Program-made: the position numbers and the translations under genes
Shown: positions 803 to 51,758 of the stretch, piece by piece
Layout: each line of letters begins with the position of its first letter
Position numbering within the stretch: position 1 is the first letter of the stretch
Notes under the pieces: model-generated
Databases searched by the model: none
Seen by the model: only the letters and a program-made list of their open reading frames with translations
Told to the model about the DNA's origin: nothing
Assembly (NCBI GenBank): GCA_944393695.1
Contig: CALYAY010000005.1
Coordinates: 33,717-97,716 of the forward strand
Reading direction: 5' to 3'
From: an uncultured Alphaproteobacteria bacterium
GTDB taxonomy: Bacteria; Pseudomonadota; Alphaproteobacteria; RF32; CAG-239
DNA length: 64,000 nucleotides

Positions 803-2788
803 TTAGAATTCGATGACAGGATGAACTGATGCTGTTATAGTGTTTTTATTGGAATATCGATCAGTGCTATAACTGTAGCATATTCCGTACTTGCATACAG
901 ATGAGGCACCTGCAGTCCAGACAAATGTTCCCGTTTTTTCAGTTGATGTCCATATAGTTTGTCTAATATAATTGGAATTTCCGGCCACTTTGCGGATGAC
1001 TGATTGGATAAGCTCTTCATTTTCTGGATATGCCCGGAATACACCAGCTGCCGGCAGGCACCAATCGCCAGATTTTGTTCCTTCTGTTTTATATTCGTGT
1101 GCAGCCCAGGCTGCCGGGTAATCATTTTTATTACCCATAGAAACAATTATATTTGTGTTTTCGCAACTTTGAAAATCTGTTGAGGCAGCTTCATAGCTAT
1201 CTTTATTGGGTATACTCAAATCAATTTGTTCTGTATTTGCTGAAGACCATGTATAACTTGTTTTAAAACTTTCTACAGATATAGCCTGGGCGCAGTTTCC
1301 GTCATCGCTTTTATAAATGACGACGGCGATGGGGGTTTTACCAGAGACGACAGTGGAAGCACAGGTTCCGTCACTGTAAAGAATATCGCCGATATTGCAG
1401 TTTTTAGCATAACCGTTACACTTTCCCCATTCTGCTTTAGGTTCTTCTTTGCAAATGCCGTCTTTCCATTCATAACCGCTGGCACAATTACAGGATTTGT
1501 ATTTTCCGTCACAGGCTTCACCAGAGCCGCCGGCGTAACCGGTGCCGGTGCAGGTGTATTGGTAGTCGGCTGAGCATTGCTTTGTGCAGGTTTGAGAGCC
1601 TGAGTTCCAGTCGTAGCCGGACTGGCAGCCGGTTTTGCAATATTTACCGGAGCAGTCTTCATAGCGGCAGGTGAAGGGTGAGGGGCAGCTGGTGTAAGTG
1701 CATTCATAGGCGCACTGTTTGGTGCAGGTCTTGGTATTTTCATTCCAGTCGTAGCCGGGTTGGCAGCCGGTTTTATAATAAAGACCGGAACAATCCTCGT
1801 AGGAGCAGGTGAAGGGTGCGGGACAGTAGGTGAGGCTGCCGAGATTGGGGCAGGCTTTGCAGTTATCGTATTTTATCTGATTTCCTGATTGGCAGGATTT
1901 TGCACCGATTTCGGGCCCCATGCTGCCGCAATCCATATATCCGTTGCAAGGATTGGGTTTGATTTTATATTTTGTTTGTCCGTTGCAATCCACACAGGCT
2001 TCGCCGTCTTGAACGTAACCGTCGGGAATGGTGGTGTTGTCATAACCGGCGCAGGTGTTGCAGCAGGTGCCGTAAGTATTGTCGTACGAGCAACGGTCGG
2101 AGCTTAATTGCTGGCCGGTGCCGCAGGTATTTGTATAGTTTGGATTTAATTCTTTGCAGGCGCGTTCGGTATCTTTTTCACAGGAGGCATATTTCCCGTC
2201 ACAGTCTTCACCGACGCCATAGTAGGGGACTTCACAGGTGACGTAATTGCTTGGACAGGAAGAAACACATTTTTCGAAATAATTGCTGTCGTAGGGGCAG
2301 GTGTTGACGGGTTCCTGACCTTCGGGACATGAGGTTTGGGTATAGCCTTCCTGACAGCAGCGCTCGGCATTGTCGAGGTCATAATCATCACCTCCGGGAG
2401 GTACGCCGCCGTCATCCTCATCGGCATTATTCCCCGCAAACTCATTGCCGGAACAGTTGGTTGTGTCGGTCACGAAACAGGCGGCTGCGAGTTTTATTTT
2501 TTCACCCTTTTCTTCCCTCCCTAAAGAGTTAGGGAGGGTAAGGGAGGGTTTGAAACCCTCTCTGTCTCTCCCTGAGTTTTCAGGGAGAGTAAGTTCGGCA
2601 AAATCTTCAGGTGAAGACAAATGTCCGGCCGTGAGGTGTGAAGTGTGTGTGGAAACGTGTGATTTAACTCCGGCGGGAATAAAAGACGGGGAAGTGTCAA
2701 AATGATTAAAGTCAGCGCAACACCAATCAGCTCCGGCAATAAGGGACATGCAGGAAGCCGACAACATGAGAATAGTCTTATTCATCAT
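803..2788 (-). CDS. Cysteine-rich secreted protein with C-terminal DUF1566 (Lcl-C-like) domain
   Basis: N-terminal signal peptide. More than 80 Cys in repeated CxxGYDW / CSG modules. C-terminus (GKTPIAVVIY...YPAAWAAHEYKTEGTKSGDWCLPAAG) matches the DUF1566 pattern and is paralogous to 19299..20123. N-terminal half is paralogous to 20414..21508. Confidence 0.75.
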   Translation of the reverse strand: MMNKTILMLSASCMSLIAGADWCCADFNHFDTSPSFIPAGVKSHVSTHTSHLTAGHLSSPEDFAELTLPENSGRDREGFKPSLTLPNSLGREEKGEKIKLAAACFVTDTTNCSGNEFAGNNADEDDGGVPPGGDDYDLDNAERCCQEGYTQTSCPEGQEPVNTCPYDSNYFEKCVSSCPSNYVTCEVPYYGVGEDCDGKYASCEKDTERACKELNPNYTNTCGTGQQLSSDRCSYDNTYGTCCNTCAGYDNTTIPDGYVQDGEACVDCNGQTKYKIKPNPCNGYMDCGSMGPEIGAKSCQSGNQIKYDNCKACPNLGSLTYCPAPFTCSYEDCSGLYYKTGCQPGYDWNENTKTCTKQCAYECTYTSCPSPFTCRYEDCSGKYCKTGCQSGYDWNSGSQTCTKQCSADYQYTCTGTGYAGGSGEACDGKYKSCNCASGYEWKDGICKEEPKAEWGKCNGYAKNCNIGDILYSDGTCASTVVSGKTPIAVVIYKSDDGNCAQAISVESFKTSYTWSSANTEQIDLSIPNKDSYEAASTDFQSCENTNIIVSMGNKNDYPAAWAAHEYKTEGTKSGDWCLPAAGVFRAYPENEELIQSVIRKVAGNSNYIRQTIWTSTEKTGTFVWTAGASSVCKYGICYSYSTDRYSNKNTITASVHPVIEF

Positions 2789-2915: not shown

Positions 2916-3232
2916 ATTTGACCCCTCCGGCTCCCCTTTCTAAAGGGGAGAGGTCAATAAGGAAGATCCCTTGACGTTCAGGCTGGCGCTGAACGAGGGA
3001 TGACAGTTTTTTGAAAATGAAACCCTCCCCAACCTTCTGGCTCCGTAAGTGTTGCCAAGGGGCAACACTAAGTCGTTGCGGTCACTCGGTTTGTAACGCT
3101 CATTTCGCGTTGCTGCCGCTAGCTTATGAGCTAACAAACTCTCGCCTGTCGTTGAAAATATCTCCACCGGAGATATTTTCTGCCTCCGGCCCTGAGTTTT
3201 CAGGGAGGGGGAAGACAAGAAGGAGGATGGCT
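2916..3232. repeat. Composite REP/RPE-like palindromic mosaic repeat cluster (copy A)
   Basis: Modules include gacccctccggctcccctttctaaaggggagagg, cttgacgttcaggctggcgctgaacgagggatgac, gaaaccctcccc and a 120-bp unit. Full composite recurs at 21812..22200. Partial copies at 20140..20410 (inverted) and 43730..44150. Confidence 0.8.
3066..3187. repeat. About 120-bp structured repeat unit, copy 1 (candidate sRNA/structured element)
   Basis: 117/120 identical to 22039..22160. Contains hairpins tgttgccaaggggcaaca, gtaacgctcatttcgcgttgc and tatctccaccggagata. Confidence 0.5.
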
Positions 3233-9601: not shown

Positions 9602-9845
9602 AGTGGTAGTCCCGAACAGAGTTGAACTGTTTACTCAGCTACGTCAAAGCTACGTGATAACCGTTTCACTACGGGACTAGCGAAAACTTTTATTTATGTA
9701 GCGTATATTTTGGTTAAATGCAAGTCTTTTTTTCATATCCGGATAAATTTAGAGAATAATTTCCGTCTCTCCTTGTTTTTATTTATTGATATTTTATTTA
9801 TTTTTGTATAATATAGAAGAAAACAACCATGAAGGAGGATGAATA

Positions 9846-19298: not shown

Positions 19299-20123
19299 TT
19301 AGAATTCAAGGACGGGCCGGACCTCGTAGCGGTTAGGCTTATTGATGGTGTCGCTGCCGTACAACCCGTAGTCGTTGCTTAAATTCGAGTACCACGCGCT
19401 GCCGCCACGGTTCTCGGAAGACGACCAGAGGGAGGAACTTCTTCCTAACTGATCACCACCGGCCAATACAAACCCGGCATTAATCGCCGACATATTGTTT
19501 TTAATACTCGTCATAATACCGGCTGCCGGCAGACACCAATCCCCGGCATTAGTACCCTCTGTCTTATACTCATGTGCCGCCCAGGCAGCCGGATAAGTAC
19601 TCTTATTGCCAGCATTAGTAATAAGAATTGTATTGCTGCAACTCTTAACATCAGTTGCCGCCATCTCTGCACTACTCCAGTTGGTCAAAGTTGTAATATC
19701 CGTGCCGTATCCACTCCACGCATAATCTCCTATTTTTTTCAATGCCATGGCCTGACCACCGCCTGTTCCGTCAACATAAACCACCACACCAATCGGGGTT
19801 TTACCACTGATAACCTTACCATAAGAACAACTTATATCAGAATAAAAAATTGAACCTATGGCGCAATCTTTGGTATTACCACCTCCAATACCACCTTCTT
19901 CAATCACTTTTTTGATTTCCGTGATTTCGGTGGTGATTTCATTAATTTTATCTGCTAAGGTGCAGTTCCAGGCATTGCCGAAGGGACACTTAATCCCGCC
20001 TTCGCAGGATGATGAGCTTTCATAGCCCAAACTAGAACAACTCGGCGTCGGGATACATGCGGCATAAACACTTCCCGCACTTATCACCATTACCCCCACA
20101 CTCGCTAATAATATTTTCTTCAT
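19299..20123 (-). CDS. Secreted DUF1566 (Lcl-C-like) domain protein, paralog of C-terminus of 803..2788
   Basis: Signal peptide MKKILLASVGVMVISAGSVYAA. GKTPIGVVVYVD...YPAAWAAHEYKTEGTNAGDWCLPAAG shared with 803..2788. Nucleotide-level similarity is also visible. Confidence 0.7.
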   Translation of the reverse strand: MKKILLASVGVMVISAGSVYAACIPTPSCSSLGYESSSSCEGGIKCPFGNAWNCTLADKINEITTEITEIKKVIEEGGIGGGNTKDCAIGSIFYSDISCSYGKVISGKTPIGVVVYVDGTGGGQAMALKKIGDYAWSGYGTDITTLTNWSSAEMAATDVKSCSNTILITNAGNKSTYPAAWAAHEYKTEGTNAGDWCLPAAGIMTSIKNNMSAINAGFVLAGGDQLGRSSSLWSSSENRGGSAWYSNLSNDYGLYGSDTINKPNRYEVRPVLEF

Positions 20124-20139
20124 AACCTTTCTCCTTATA

Positions 20140-20410
20140 TTAGTTGTTAATAATATTTACCGTTCCCCTTTTTACCTCGCCCTTGAGGGGAGAGGTCGGA
20201 GCGTAAGCTCCGGGTGAGGGTGACAAAATAAACTGTCATCCCTCGTTCAGCGTCAGTCTGAACGTCAAGGGATCTTCCTTGCTGCTCTCTCCCCTTTTAA
20301 AAGGGGAGCCGGAGGGGTCAAATAGCGCCGCTTTATTCATCAGACTTGCATTCGCCATTCCACCCTCACCCTAACCCTCTCCCCTCAAGGGCGAGGGAAT
20401 AAAGAGCAAT
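20140..20410. repeat. REP/RPE-like palindromic mosaic repeat cluster (inverted orientation)
   Basis: Contains the reverse complement of unit 1 (gtcatccctcgttcagcg...aaaaggggagccggaggggtc) plus gggtgagggtg / ccctctcccctcaagggcgaggg palindromes. Confidence 0.8.
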
Positions 20411-20413
20411 CCC

Positions 20414-21508
20414 CTATCCGCCGCAGAAGTCACAATAATCCGCACAATTCGTCGCACAACCGGTGGCATACCATAAGCCCGAGCATTCTTCATACTGGCA
20501 TATGGTGCAGCTCGGACAGGTGGTGTATTCTCCCAAGTTCGGGCAGGCCTTACAATTGTCATACATGGTGGTTGTTCCCGACAAACAAGTCGAGGCTCCG
20601 GCTTCTCCGCCCATGGAGCCGCAGTCCATATATCCATCACACGGGTTGGGTTTTATCTTGTAATGTTCCTGACCGTCACAACCAAGGCAGCTCTCACCAT
20701 CCTGGACATAGCCGTCGGGAATACTCGTATTGTCGTATCCGGCACAAGTGTTGCAACAGGTGCCGTATAAACTGTCATAAGAACATCTGTCATCGCTTAA
20801 TTGTTGGCCGGTGCCGCATTCATCGACATAACCGGGGTTCAATTCCTGACAGGCGCGCTCAGTGTCTTTTTCACAAGAGGCATATTTCCCGTCGCAGGCC
20901 TCTCCCACGCCGTAATACGGAACTTCACAAGTGACATAATTTGAGGGACAGGAAGAAACACATTTTTCAAAATAAGTGCTGTCATAGGGGCAGGTGTTGG
21001 AAGGTTCCTGACCTTCGGGACAGGAGGTTTGGGTATATCCTTCCTGGCGGCAGCGTTCAGCATTGTCCAAATCATAATCATCGCCGTCTCCGGGACCGCC
21101 GGGAGCCCCGTGTCCGTCATCATCGGCATTATTGCCGCTAAACTCATTTCCCGAACAGGCTGAGGTATCGGTTACAAAACAGGTGGCTGCGAGTTGGGGA
21201 AGAGGGGTGTTGTGAAACCCTCCCCAGCCCCTCCCTAAGTTTTTAGGGAGGGGATAGAATAGATAGTTCCCTAAGTCTTTAGGGAGGGAATAGGATAGAT
21301 AGTTCCCTGAGTTTTCAGGGAGAGGATAAAAGGCAGAAGACAACAACATTTCTTCCGGGTGAGAGGTGTGTGTATAAGGTGTGTGGACAAATGTAACCGC
21401 CCCCGGAGTGTTGAGAGATGTTAGATTATGAATTGAAGCCAAACTGCCGCCGGGCATAAGAAACAGCCCGGAAACCGACAGCATTAATGCTTTGGATAAT
21501 TTCATCAT
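20414..21508 (-). CDS. Cysteine-rich secreted protein, paralog of N-terminal half of 803..2788
   Basis: Signal peptide. Near-identical central block (CFVTDT..CSGNEFSGNNADDD...NAERC.QEGYTQTSCPEGQEP.NTCPYDS.YFEKCVSSCPSNYVTCEVPYYGVGE.CDGKYASCEKDTERAC.ELNP). Lacks the DUF1566 domain. Confidence 0.7.
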   Translation of the reverse strand: MMKLSKALMLSVSGLFLMPGGSLASIHNLTSLNTPGAVTFVHTPYTHTSHPEEMLLSSAFYPLPENSGNYLSYSLPKDLGNYLFYPLPKNLGRGWGGFHNTPLPQLAATCFVTDTSACSGNEFSGNNADDDGHGAPGGPGDGDDYDLDNAERCRQEGYTQTSCPEGQEPSNTCPYDSTYFEKCVSSCPSNYVTCEVPYYGVGEACDGKYASCEKDTERACQELNPGYVDECGTGQQLSDDRCSYDSLYGTCCNTCAGYDNTSIPDGYVQDGESCLGCDGQEHYKIKPNPCDGYMDCGSMGGEAGASTCLSGTTTMYDNCKACPNLGEYTTCPSCTICQYEECSGLWYATGCATNCADYCDFCGG

Positions 21509-21610
21509 AATATCACCTGTCTGTTGTTGTCTTCACGAATCTTATGATAACAGATATTTTACAAATAATCAATGTGTATTTTAAATATAATGACGGGAAA
21601 TCGGACGAGG
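21509..21610 (-). promoter_or_regulatory. Conserved 5' leader/promoter region of Cys-rich paralog (copy 2)
   Basis: tgtcttcacgaatcttatgataacag and atgacgggaaatcgg blocks shared with 2789..2915. Confidence 0.35.
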
Positions 21611-22330
21611 TTTTAAAACCCCCTCTAACTCCCCCTAAAATATTAGGGGGAGGATATAAGGATACTTGATTGTCACCCTCACCCGACACGTTGTGTCGAC
21701 CTCTCCCCTTAAGGGCGAGGTGAAGAAATGGATGACTTTTTTGCCTAGATCCTCGGGTTAAACCCGAGGGTGACAGGGAAAAGGGAGGCTGAGAAAAGAT
21801 AAGGCTGATATTTGACCCCTCCGGCTCCCCTTTCTAAAGGGGAGAGGGCAATAAGGAAGATCCCTTGACGTTCAGACTGGCGCTGAACGAGGGATGACAA
21901 TTTTTATTTGTTTGAATATGAAACCCTCCCCGACCCTCCCTAAGACTTTAGGGAGGGAGATATATGAGTAGAGATTTTAGAGGGATGACATTGCCATACC
22001 CCCTCCAACTTTCTGGCTCCTACTAAGCTCACTACGTTTGCTAAGTCGCTGCGGTCACTCAGTTTGTAACGCTCATTTCGCGTTGCTGCCGCTAGCTTAT
22101 GAGCTAACAAACTCTCGCCTGTCGTTGAAAATATCTCCACAGGAGATATTTTCTGCCTCCAGCCCTATAACTATAGGGGGAGGGTGGGTTTGGGGGCAAA
22201 GGCTTTAGGGGGGGAAAGTATAAGGAAAGTTTTTTTCACCCTCACCCTGACCCTCTCCCCTCAAGGGAGAGGGAAGAATACGGGGAGGTTTTTGGGAGGG
22301 GAATATGGGGTTTAGAAAGGGTGGTAAGGA
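21540..22330. repeat. Large REP/RPE-like palindromic mosaic repeat cluster (includes composite copy B)
   Basis: Stacked palindromes: ccccctaaaatattaggggg, cctcgggttaaacccgagg, tcaccctcaccc...ctctcccc.taagggcgagg, tccctccctaagactttagggaggga. Also contains unit 1 (21816..21903) and the 120-bp unit. Confidence 0.8.
22039..22160. repeat. About 120-bp structured repeat unit, copy 2
   Basis: 3 substitutions relative to 3066..3187. Flanking 30 bp (cttctggctcc...) is also shared. Confidence 0.5.
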
Positions 22331-28165: not shown

Positions 28166-29620
28166 ATGAATGAAAATAACGACGAAATGGTAATTGACGA
28201 AAACAGCAACCAGGATACACGGGAAAAAGAAGTGACTGTTGACGAGGCGCTGAAGGAAACAACCGTCAATGAAGAAATGAAGGAAACGACCGTCAACGAA
28301 GAGGCGAAAGAAACAACCTTTAATGAAAACGCCAAAGAGACAACTTTTAACGAACATCCGGCAGAAAACCGCGTTCCGGAAAATTCCGACGAGCAAGATA
28401 ATCTTGATGATGAAAAACAAGGCGATATCGAAAATCTGGAAGACGACAGGATTAATCCTCCGGACGAGGAAGGAAAAGGGCCGTTTGAAGAAGGCGATAT
28501 TATTGCTTATATGTATAAGAACTGGCTGATTGCCGGGATGAATTATGCCTGGGTATCAGCGGCAAAACGTATTAAAGCGGAGTCATATAAAAGGAAATAT
28601 CAAAAAAACCGCCGAAAAGCCGAGAAAAACAAGGATAAAGAAGTTAAACGCTATGATACGTATAAAATGCGGGATACTTATGAGAAAAAAGCAAATACCG
28701 AAATGGAGAAGAAGGAAGCTCAGATTATCGGGAACCGCAGCCTGATTAACCTGGCGGAAAAGGTGCGCGAGGGCAAATATGAAGAGGCCGGGCTGAGTCC
28801 GGAAATGCAGGATGTTGTCAAAAATATGCCCAAGAAGCAATTTGATGAAATGTTTGCCGAGAAAAACGTGAAAAAATATCAGAAAAACATTAATGACACC
28901 CTGATTTCGGCGAACCAGTTTGCTCATATGTACGCCCAGTTGTCCATGCTGGAAACCAAAGCCAAAGACGCCAATGACCCGATGTTTCAAAACGGAAACG
29001 ACCCGGCTTATCAGGCTCAGGTGAAGGAAGGCCTGATTCTTTATGCCAAAGCCATGGGCAGAGAAGCCGAGCAAGGCGGCGATACAAGAAAATTCAGCGG
29101 CAAGTTATTAGATCAGGCAAAGAATGCTCTGGATGTTACCCGTAAAAATATAGAAAAAGGGAATTTTAACGGTTATCACAAAAAACGCCGTTTCAGAAAA
29201 GACATTATCGGCGAACGCAAGGAAAACAAAGAGTTTGACAAACTGCTCAAAACGCTCAACGGGATTGATACCAACGAGCCTGCGGCCAATATGTTTGAAG
29301 CAATTATCCGCAGCCAGGCTTTTGACAAAGAAAAAGCGGCCCAATTGGTTGAAAATCAAAATCAGGAGCGAATTCTGGCGGCCAGACGCCAACGCAACGA
29401 CGACAGACGGCGGCGGCTGCAGGAAGCTAAAGACAGGATGGATCCGACCCGCAGGGCTCAGCGGGAAGCCAAAAACGCCGAAAGAGAGGCCAAGCGCCAG
29501 AAAAGAATTAAGAATCTGGAAAATCCGGATTATGTCATGACAGATTCCAAAGGCAATAAGAATCAAGAAGAGACCAATAAGTGGCGCCAGTTTTACAGAG
29601 ACCGGGGAATGATGAGGTAA
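28166..29620 (+). CDS. Highly charged hypothetical protein with tandem 11-aa repeats (KETTVNEEM x4)
   Basis: 484 aa, K/E/R-rich, C-terminal RRQR..RRRRLQEAKDR basic stretch. Translationally coupled (1-nt gap) to 29622. Confidence 0.6.
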   Translation: MNENNDEMVIDENSNQDTREKEVTVDEALKETTVNEEMKETTVNEEAKETTFNENAKETTFNEHPAENRVPENSDEQDNLDDEKQGDIENLEDDRINPPDEEGKGPFEEGDIIAYMYKNWLIAGMNYAWVSAAKRIKAESYKRKYQKNRRKAEKNKDKEVKRYDTYKMRDTYEKKANTEMEKKEAQIIGNRSLINLAEKVREGKYEEAGLSPEMQDVVKNMPKKQFDEMFAEKNVKKYQKNINDTLISANQFAHMYAQLSMLETKAKDANDPMFQNGNDPAYQAQVKEGLILYAKAMGREAEQGGDTRKFSGKLLDQAKNALDVTRKNIEKGNFNGYHKKRRFRKDIIGERKENKEFDKLLKTLNGIDTNEPAANMFEAIIRSQAFDKEKAAQLVENQNQERILAARRQRNDDRRRRLQEAKDRMDPTRRAQREAKNAEREAKRQKRIKNLENPDYVMTDSKGNKNQEETNKWRQFYRDRGMMR

Positions 29621-43483: not shown

Positions 43484-43726
43484 GTGAGAATTATGGTTTC
43501 CAAAAAGAAAATTAAATATCGGATTTTTTGTATCAAACGGGATATGGGTGTTCGTTTGAAGTTTTTGCGTAATAAGAAAGAGTTGAGTTTGCCCGAGGTG
43601 TCGGAGGCCTGCGGAATTTCAGTCTGTCATATTGAGATGATAGAAAACGGGCGTTCGTTTTCGCTGAAGCATCTTCTTATGTTGGCGTCGGTGTACGGGG
43701 TTCGGGTGAAGATTTTGATTAAGTGA
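43484..43726 (+). CDS. XRE-family helix-turn-helix protein (80 aa)
   Basis: LRNKKELSLPEVSEACGISVCHIEMIENGR HTH_3-like. RBS aaaggag. Confidence 0.6.
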   Translation: MRIMVSKKKIKYRIFCIKRDMGVRLKFLRNKKELSLPEVSEACGISVCHIEMIENGRSFSLKHLLMLASVYGVRVKILIK

Positions 43727-43729
43727 GGG

Positions 43730-44150
43730 GGATTTTAAAACCCCCTCTAACTCCCCCTAATATTTTAGGGGGAGAGATATTAGGCTGGATTTGTTACCTG
43801 GGTCCTCGGGTTAAACCCGAGGATGACAGAGGGAGAAGGATGACAGTGTCTCTTTCCCACCTCTCCCTTGAGGGGAGAGGTCGCAGAACGGAGTGACGCG
43901 GGTGAGGGTGAGAGGGGTAAGGCAGGTATTTGCTCTCCCCGGCCCTCTCATCTATGAAAGGGTGACAAATTTGAAGATCCCCTGACGTTCAGGCTGGCGC
44001 TGAACGAGGGATGACAGTTTTTATTTGGATATGAAACCCTCCTACTCCCCCTAAATTTTTAGGGGGAGGGTGATTTGGAGGACTAAGACTTTAGGGGAGA
44101 GATATAGGGGAAACAAAAAAATCCCCTCGAGGGGAGGGGAAATTTTGTTA
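43730..44150. repeat. REP/RPE-like palindromic mosaic repeat cluster
   Basis: Shares ccccctaatattttaggggg, cctcgggttaaacccgagg, cctctcccttgaggggagagg, gggtgagggtgag, and the 3' half of unit 1 (gaagatcccctgacgttcaggctggcgctgaacgagggatgacag) with the other clusters. Confidence 0.8.
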
Positions 44151-51537: not shown

Positions 51538-51758
51538 GGCATAGAGAAGAGCTGTCCGGTGCGTAGTTCCCGCAAGTCTTCCGAGCCAACATTATCTTTA
51601 AGGGAACTGTCACTGAGCAAATCGTGGTTTGTTTATATGGTGCCCACCTATTTGACAGCGGTTCGTGTGGAATGCACTAGATACGGCTGTGACGGCCCTT
51701 CTCGCCAGTTTTTAATTTTAACATGACGAAAATCCCCGGTTCGGGATTTTCGTGTTTT
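51538..51758 (+). ncRNA. ssrS: Candidate 6S RNA (SsrS) with intrinsic terminator
   Basis: Immediately downstream of zapA (conserved zapA-ssrS synteny). 5' gagaagagc pairs with 3' gcccttctc (closing stem). Terminator hairpin aaaatccc-cggttc-gggatttt plus T-run at 51729..51758. Confidence 0.5.

Follow-up and report, generated by a model that had tools for sequence, protein, structure and literature searches.

Organization of the Locus

The window considered in this work, a stretch of 64,000 nucleotides (nt) on contig CALYAY010000005.1 from an uncultured Alphaproteobacteria bacterium, carries on its minus strand a gene for a Cys-rich protein of 364 amino acids (aa) (20414..21508), referred to below as the target gene, in which short palindromic repeats lie in frame between a signal peptide and the conserved body of the predicted protein. 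The gene begins with an ATG preceded by an AGGTGA Shine-Dalgarno sequence and is composed, from the N- to the C-terminus, of a signal peptide, a conserved pre-linker, a repeat-derived linker, and a Cys-rich body. The signal-peptide-like N-terminus MMKLSKALMLSVSGLFLMPGGSLA (codons 1−24, 21437..21508, minus strand), in which a Lys-rich start, a hydrophobic core, and an S-L-A end can be recognized by direct reading, is kept across homologues and is followed by a conserved His/Thr-rich stretch (residues 25−58) with LLSS at its end. The linker AFYPLPENSGNYLSYSLPKDLGNYLFYPLPKNLGRGWGGFHNTPLPQ occupies codons 59−105 (21194..21334, minus strand), and the conserved Cys-rich body extends from residue 106 on (LAATCFVTDTSACSGNEF...).

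Hairpin Units and Their Single Open Frame

The initial annotation of this gene had described in-frame palindromic modules in the linker and quoted three of them together with their translation. All three are present on the minus strand, as the reverse complements of 21268−21289, 21304−21321, and 21200−21219, and the translation matches exactly. A repeat search resolves a tandem array of three 36-nt units at 21232..21339, each consisting of a hairpin and an 18-nt tail and encoding 12 aa, for which Tandem Repeats Finder gives 2.7 copies of a 36-nt unit (21232−21328, 86% matches). Each unit contains a hairpin of 18−26 nt: TCCCTGAGTTTTCAGGGA at 21304..21321, translated as LPENSG, and TCCCTAAGTCTTTAGGGA at 21268..21285, translated as LPKDLG, both form a perfect stem of 7 base pairs (bp), and CCCCTCCCTAAGTTTTTAGGGAGGGG at 21228..21253, translated as LPKNLG, forms a perfect stem of 11 bp. 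A degenerate copy of the GGGAGGGTTTCA..ACCCTCCC palindrome, translated as RGWGGFHNTPLPQ, lies at 21194..21227 and aligns with the GAAACCCTCCCC half of intergenic elements elsewhere in the window; the third quoted module (21200−21219) is a degenerate palindrome only, whereas its counterpart in the paralogous gene at 803..2788 (2544−2560) forms a perfect stem of 7 bp. Shuffled sequence would be expected to contain 0.01 instances of the pattern CCCTRANNNNTYAGGG, whereas the window has 10, three of them in the target gene and two in the paralog (803..2788, minus strand).

The relationship between palindrome and peptide can be read directly from the hairpin TCCCT(A/G)A-NNNN-T(T/C)AGGGA, in which TAA or TAG closes two of the three frames on either strand and the sole open frame yields (L/S)P(K/E)x(L/S)G in both orientations. 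The palindrome explains why the two orientations yield one peptide, and the closure of all other frames on either strand explains why (L/S)P(K/E)x(L/S)G is found in every surviving copy. Furthermore, the K/E and L/S positions, which are coded by paired stem bases, co-vary in the linkers of 120 homologues, with 75 motifs of the K..L type, 48 of the E..S type, and 12 noncomplementary combinations. The earlier proposal that the peptide modules are generated by DNA palindromes is borne out by this open frame and by the co-variation of stem-paired residues. At the RNA level, the hairpin segment of the mRNA folds at −59 kcal/mol over 161 nt (z = −5.6, 200 shuffles). A CRISPR-like array was also considered for this segment and was rejected, since the 18-nt "spacers" that separate the hairpins are repeats as well.

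Support for Translation of the Repeat Block

One open reading frame (ORF) from signal peptide to body is kept in 105 of 120 homologue clusters, a count obtained from predicted proteins, which are biased to long ORFs, and from related sequences in which paralogs are mixed with orthologues. Across the 120 clusters, the distance from Met1 to the first conserved Cys takes 41 different values between 85 and 207 aa, and nine intact linkers measured between fixed DNA anchors have lengths of 82, 94, 118, 127, 133, 154, 190, 280, and 340 nt, all of which equal 1 modulo 3. Two copies called as N-truncated (P0069 at locus L008 and P0086 at locus L009) deviate, their linkers of 62 and 278 nt being 2 modulo 3, and their frame breaks lie at 2560−2580 of L008, where a 20-nt deletion has removed half a hairpin, and at 2420−2445 of L009, where 10 nt are duplicated (TTGATCACC). 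These two frame-broken copies could be pseudogenes, off-switched copies, or assembly errors.

The ratio of nonsynonymous to synonymous polymorphism (pN/pS) is 0.33 over codons 1−58 in seven copies, and this N-terminal region appears to be under purifying selection and to behave as coding sequence. No in-frame ATG, GTG, or TTG occurs in the target gene between codons 57 and 146, and the first downstream in-frame start is a TTG at codon 147, the use of which would remove conserved cysteines and the signal peptide. A scan of reference-genome contigs returned three distant relatives only (39−58% identity), all from metagenome-assembled genomes of uncultured Alphaproteobacteria or Pseudomonadota. 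In two of them (L001 and L002, 49−58% identity), a short linker free of repeats (LSSSDEIKLAAVCF / LPSSDEIKLAAVCF) connects the signal peptide with the body, the sequence after the signal peptide reading ...LHTHL.SP...(L/P)SSDEIKLAAVCF with no repeats. Signal peptide and body therefore form one ancestral coding region, into which the repeats were inserted between LSS and (E)IKLAA.

Translation through the repeat block is therefore strongly supported at the sequence level by the kept ORF, the single modulo-3 class of the linkers, the pN/pS of 0.33, the lack of an alternative start, and the repeat-free relatives. Initiation downstream of the block, which the initial annotation had named as the observation that would overturn its reading, is at odds with the kept frame, the missing alternative start, the repeat-free relatives, and the pN/pS value. 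If the linker is translated, the predicted peptides include YPLPENSGNYLSYSLPK and DLGNYLFYPLPK.

The pre-linker HTPYTHTSHPEE (21340−21400, codons ~37−56) is conserved, with the variants THFTHTSH and NTHFTHTSH among homologues, and its DNA is CA-rich and of low complexity (cacacaccttatacacacacctctcac). Two homologues, P0035 and P0069, start in another reading frame just upstream of or across this CA-rich stretch (MRLHLST...), the frameshift of P0069 itself being placed downstream of the pre-linker, in the hairpin. On the other side of the linker, the conserved motif LAA(T/A)C was considered as a lipobox displaced by the insertions. This candidate was rejected: position −1 is usually T, homologues without repeats also have the motif ~45 residues after the signal peptide, and the upstream signal peptide already has its own S-L-A end.

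Dispersed Copies of the Repeats in the Window

The linker block at 21190−21270 aligns over ~60 nt with intergenic copies at 21598−21672, 21905−21978, 43718−43795, and 44018−44090, so that this ~60-nt element is found at no fewer than four intergenic sites of the window; the block also aligns with intergenic DNA of loci L007 and L012, with the linker of L004, and with the upstream region of L008. The consensus of the element is ..TGAAACCCTCCCC.ACCCTCCCTAAGTTTTTAGGGAGGGGATATAAGGA..., and the two aligned copies closest to the target gene lie at 21598..21672 (GAAACCC..CTCCCCCTAA..TTAGGGGGAG GATATAAGGA) and 21905..21978. Another two copies belong to a repeat island at 43718..44140, which also holds other hairpin modules and a partial 100-nt element and which is situated behind a small unrelated ORF with no family gene nearby. 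Several hairpin types are assembled into mosaic islands of this kind, at ~2900−3260, 20150−20400, 21600−22350, and 43720−44140. The in-frame palindromic modules of the initial annotation stand, but it had missed that these modules copy dispersed intergenic elements.

Two longer elements accompany the hairpins. The 100-nt element contains internal hairpins and occurs downstream of the target gene (20225..20324) and, inverted, upstream of it (21809..21908), the members of this flanking pair being 91% complementary; a third copy lies at 2916−3012 and a partial copy at 43973−44020. The same element is also found just downstream of the Cys-rich gene, before the partner gene that follows it, in L005, L007, L009, and L012. 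In homologue P0010, the stop codon is lost and the ORF continues past ..CDFCGG into a 36-aa tail (..EGKKLLLSCHPRACPKDPG...), which looks like the 100-nt element at the level of the peptide. The intergenic ~153-nt element is located at 22031..22185, with a second copy at 3058−3200, and the intergenic copies of the window are stop-free only in the two frames that are used inside genes.

Variation of the Linker Slot among Relatives

A total of 295 homologues were found, nearly all from ENA metagenome assemblies, with bodies 62−93% identical to that of the target gene, and among them the sequence that separates LLSS from (K)IKLAAT differs extremely from copy to copy, a variation that mixes paralogs, lineages, and possibly alleles. 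Copy number had been claimed to differ between the paralogs, and the 36-nt unit is indeed present once (P0081, P0099, and P0108), twice (P0005, P0009, and many others), three times (the window gene and P0001−P0004), or four times (P0070 and P0117) in related genes, with clean 36-nt steps through the 1-2-3-4 series in a DNA alignment of four genes. The syntenic rplM-rpsI locus of a related lineage (L004, in the order gene, ~300-aa gene, rplM, rpsI) contains one unit, its flank being only 88.5% identical to that of the window.

Not all slots are filled with the same units. The long paralog of the window (803..2788, minus strand, 661 aa) shares 64% identity overall with the target in tblastn and 67% in a MAFFT alignment, its body being far closer to that of the target than its N-terminal part, and its slot is filled otherwise, in the order hairpin, GAGGGTTTGAAACCCTC hairpin, hairpin (2515−2538, 2544−2560, and 2566−2589). 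A comparison of the paralogs, as had been suggested, thus reveals different slot arrangements. Other homologues contain LPENSGRVREGFKPTLSLPKSLGR..., which is the type of the window paralog, TLTRSLRSDLSPQGRG...SSSDLIRGSRWNEEANLSDLDTPIKLEYD...SPLRGEVG..., or a 50-aa block ATLSRCGHSVCNAHFASLPLAYELTNSRLSLKISPPEIFSASSP, and such alternative slot peptides match translated intergenic repeats of the window at 22041−22178 (E = 1e-23), 3020−3223 (E = 1e-25), and 20171−20227, with E values from 1e-25 to 1e-5. At least seven slot architectures are distinguished among the 120 clusters. The repeat-module slot itself had been recognized earlier; what had been missed is that in other copies this slot is taken by wholly different repeat families.

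With regard to the 153-nt element, L011 differs from L010 by exactly 153 nt inserted in the left arm of a hairpin, with the ORF open, and L012 carries a diverged 153-nt element in the opposite orientation, likewise with the ORF open. The element is in frame in the linker in L011 (2726−2915), in L012, and in L003 (1197−1326), the last being a distant homologue with 39% protein identity whose linker holds a hairpin and the 153-nt element in frame at 74% nucleotide identity. In addition, members of 352 aa and of 364 aa fall within single 90%-identity clusters, and the signal peptide of P0128 is chimeric, both of which suggest exchange among copies. At the other end of the protein, an alternative C-terminus ...NYCNPPTTDCQALGYKRDTCSGRALKCPYDSAYVLCL replaces ...DYCDFCGG in P0011, P0014, P0017, P0022, P0030, and P0034.

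Proposed Origin of the Linker and Alternative Explanations

The modules are likely to be selfish repeats, similar to repetitive extragenic palindromic (REP) sequences and transposable elements of the miniature inverted-repeat type (MITEs), which a permissive linker tolerates and which slippage or recombination has amplified, in a manner that works like the Rickettsia palindromic elements (RPE). According to this proposal, small dispersed REP/MITE-like repeats of the genome would have been inserted between the signal peptide and the Cys-rich body, where the segment is probably a permissive, unstructured linker that may be functionally neutral, and one unit type would then have been amplified in tandem, the modules being transcribed and presumably translated as part of the protein. 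Three routes could contribute to the rapid change of the slot, namely, slippage or unequal recombination that adds or removes 36-nt units, the nested insertion of additional repeat families (once within a hairpin arm), and exchange among the many paralogous cassettes together with copying from the neighboring repeat island. Selection for export of the Cys-rich domain would remove variants that break the frame or carry stops, and for this reason the intact copies would all be in frame.

Several points weigh against this interpretation. The protein and its linker are known here as predictions from DNA, the count of 105 clusters overstates independence because predicted proteins favor long ORFs, and ~10% of copies are frame-broken. 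No transposase was identified in the 64-kb window and short flanks, and the elements show no clear terminal inverted repeats or target-site duplication, which leaves transposition as a candidate insertion route. Recombination or gene conversion from the repeat island 100−700 nt upstream could give the same picture, and some of the "elements" might have originated from the gene rather than the reverse, a possibility that arises because the 153-nt element is also in frame in the distant L003 at 74% nucleotide identity.

Among the competing explanations, adaptive hypervariability would regard the slot as a contingency region that diversifies or switches surface-exposed or secreted proteins, for example, against host immunity or phages, with the repeats kept for their mutability. 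Such a role would agree with the 41 spacer lengths and at least seven slot architectures among 120 clusters, with copies at no fewer than 10 genomic locations behind a conserved 5' leader, with chimeric signal-peptide alleles such as P0128, with the ~10% of copies that are frame-broken by indels inside the repeats, and with the filling of a similar slot in the distant lineage L003. It is nevertheless considered unlikely: the variants mix paralogs and lineages and so yield no clear case of strain-level or within-population switching (the L004 flank being only 88.5% identical), the variation falls outside the conserved domain, the frameshifts, a 20-nt deletion and a 10-nt duplication, are irregular and unlike reversible unit slippage, and neutral turnover of selfish DNA predicts the pattern equally. 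The more specific and similarly doubtful idea is that the slot behind the signal peptide serves as a dedicated landing pad, at which hairpin repeats are captured and shuffled in frame, diversifying or switching an N-terminal stalk across lineages; if this were true, selfish palindromic DNA would be a co-opted generator of protein variation and not tolerated junk.

A function at the RNA level, in which the hairpins pause ribosomes ~35−80 codons after the signal peptide for export targeting or stabilize the transcript, the peptide being incidental, appears quite improbable. The strong fold of −59 kcal/mol over 161 nt (z = −5.6) and the complementary stem positions (K..L and E..S) in 123 of 135 motifs could be taken in its favor, as could one pair in the comparison of the window with L005 that changes both stem sides together and is still synonymous, and a role as RNA elements downstream of genes is assumed for REPs (PMC3733652). 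However, intergenic copies have the same complementarity, which is therefore attributed to inheritance from the element rather than to selection in place, and the slot contents are wholly different among copies, with none in L001 and L002 and one hairpin in some others, in genes that are still intact. Least probable of all, to the point of being nearly dismissible, is an untranslated block, with the true start downstream, the repeats in a 5' leader, and the long ORF as a gene-calling artifact. In its favor, these elements elsewhere lie between genes, and some gene calls in other assemblies start inside or after the linker (such as P0076, P0085, P0086, P0088, and P0101), but the first downstream start, the TTG at codon 147 behind a start-free interval from codon 57 to 146, would cost the conserved cysteines and the signal peptide, the frame is kept over linkers of 82−340 nt, pN/pS is 0.33 upstream of the block, and the signal peptide is continuous with the body in distant homologues. 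Moreover, at the DNA level, the truncated calls P0069/L008 and P0086/L009 turn out to have the full-length arrangement with a frameshift. Insertion of tolerated selfish repeats into a translated linker thus remains the preferred explanation.

Comparison with Known Repeat Systems

Palindromic repeats in frame with coding sequences are already known: Rickettsia has RPE, several species have REPs within genes, and host genes have been found fused to reading frames of MITEs (PMC3733652, PMC3184786). RPE, according to summaries of Ogata et al. (2000), measure ~105−146 nt and bear a CGTC tag at one end (PMC3733652, PMC3184786). The repeats of the window resemble RPE in that palindromic repeats are found both between genes and in frame inside genes that stay intact, the inserted peptide is tolerated, and the host is alphaproteobacterial both times; intergenic and in-gene copies align with each other, and the ORF is kept across variants. 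They differ in that the commonest unit here is a hairpin of 18−26 nt in an element of 36−60 nt, the RPE size range being reached only by the separate 153-nt element, and no CGTC or GACG was found within 12 nt of any of the 22 hairpins. A further difference is that one slot of one multigene family has been refilled by several repeat families, in both orientations and with tandem amplification.

The likeness to REPs and to bacterial interspersed mosaic elements (BIMEs) lies in imperfect, G+C-rich palindromes of 20−40 nt that occur in many copies and in mosaic intergenic islands, as found in the hairpin census and the four islands, and several species are reported to have intragenic REPs (PMC3733652). 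The tags GTAG or CTAC occur near only 3 of the 22 hairpins, at inconsistent positions, and are regarded as incidental. Unlike REPs and BIMEs, the copies considered here would be translated and are tandemly amplified, and no REP-associated tyrosine transposase (RAYT) was identified in the 64-kb window and short flanks. Taken together, the element appears to work like RPE and REP while departing from the defining size and end tag of both.

The comparison with MITEs concerns the 153-nt element, which is of noncoding size, contains internal hairpins, and keeps its frame with the host gene. Delihas is said to have described, in 2007 and 2011, bacterial MITEs (Nezha, Correia, BOX, and RUP) whose open reading frames are fused to host genes. 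The empty site in L010 and the filled site in L011 differ by exactly 153 nt; the ends of the element show no clear terminal inverted repeats, and a possible duplication of 4−5 nt, CCTC(C), is visible by eye only. A difference from MITEs is that the 153-nt element is always flanked by the small hairpin modules. Finally, the array resembles the in-frame variable number tandem repeats (VNTRs) of surface or secreted proteins, as its unit is a multiple of three (36 nt) and is present in 1, 2, 3, or 4 copies among related genes, in which paralogs and lineages are mixed. The difference is that the unit itself is a copy of a dispersed palindromic intergenic element and that unrelated elements may fill the same slot. 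Features that appear unusual against this background are the very small size of the units, the same peptide from either orientation, the tandem amplification, and the repeated filling of one slot of a multigene family by several repeat families across lineages.

In-frame palindromic elements are best known from Rickettsia, and their origin and persistence are still debated. The present family provides a natural series in an unrelated uncultured alphaproteobacterial lineage, comprising empty slots, one to four units, a nested element in both orientations, and frame-broken copies, and this series indicates what selection permits when selfish hairpin DNA enters a gene, namely, that one frame survives and that the same peptide results from either orientation. 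The series further marks a place behind a signal peptide at which insertions are permitted. In practical terms, such repeats break assemblies and mislead gene callers, resulting in truncated or extended calls in the family.

Genomic Settings of the Cys-Rich Gene Family

Downstream of the target gene lies a partner gene of 274 aa (19299..20123, minus strand), which is homologous to the C-terminal domain of the long paralog. A partner gene of ~270−310 aa follows the Cys-rich gene in seven of nine fetched loci (L004, L005, L007, L008, L009, L012, and the window), the locus or contig ending at or near the Cys-rich gene in L006, L010, and L011. The long forms (580−660 aa), in which both genes are fused, have a C-terminal domain related to the partner gene. 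The cassette sites considered are 19299−21908 and 803−3268 in the window and loci L004−L012, and the Cys-rich gene occurs in at least 10 neighborhoods, which include rplM-rpsI, a Mur ligase with a peptidase S66, LptF/G, PFK, a TPR protein, glycogen phosphorylase, GPDH, NUDIX, and CSD genes, FlaF, TGT, and the second window site at 803..2788. A common 5' leader, ATAAGATTCGTGAAGACAACAACAGACAGGTGATATTATGATG, is present in every copy with upstream sequence (all but L004, which has 58 nt upstream) and is nearly identical among copies (ATAAGATTCGTGAAGACAACAACAGACAGGTGATATT-ATG). Judging from these at least 10 neighborhoods, the common leader, and the recurrent partner gene, the Cys-rich gene family is a dispersed two-gene cassette.

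The hairpins extend beyond this family. A scan of JGI metagenomes for CCCTCCCTRANNNNTYAGGGAGGG gave 88 loci, none of them with the Cys-rich gene family. Unrelated JGI metagenome contigs commonly contain hairpins of this form (CCCTCCCTAATGATTTAGGGAGGG), mostly outside long ORFs, and these matches are uninformative about the lineage of the target gene itself. Two of the JGI hairpins, at 2714−2737 of L021 and 2511−2534 of L025, lie within open frames of 931 and 864 codons, respectively, and may be in-frame insertions in other organisms.

Additional Features of the Window

A Pfam scan of the target gene, its paralog, and the downstream gene returned nothing above threshold, and an AlphaFold2 model of the target built from a 43-sequence alignment, with a mean predicted local distance difference test (pLDDT) score of 36.8, is too poor to judge the disorder of the linker specifically. 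An Rfam scan of the whole window gave no match at the repeats and only a 6S RNA (69 bits) at 51546−51702 on the plus strand and one tRNA at 9607−9678 on the minus strand. A 27-nt tandem repeat (2.9 copies, 80% matches) at 28251−28327, inside the ORF 28166..29620 on the plus strand, is in frame and not palindromic. Adjoining rpsI-rplM, an ORF of 929 aa (14983−17772, minus strand) with repetitive passenger-like sequence and a C-terminal, beta-barrel-like end (...NAKYKF) is probably an autotransporter.

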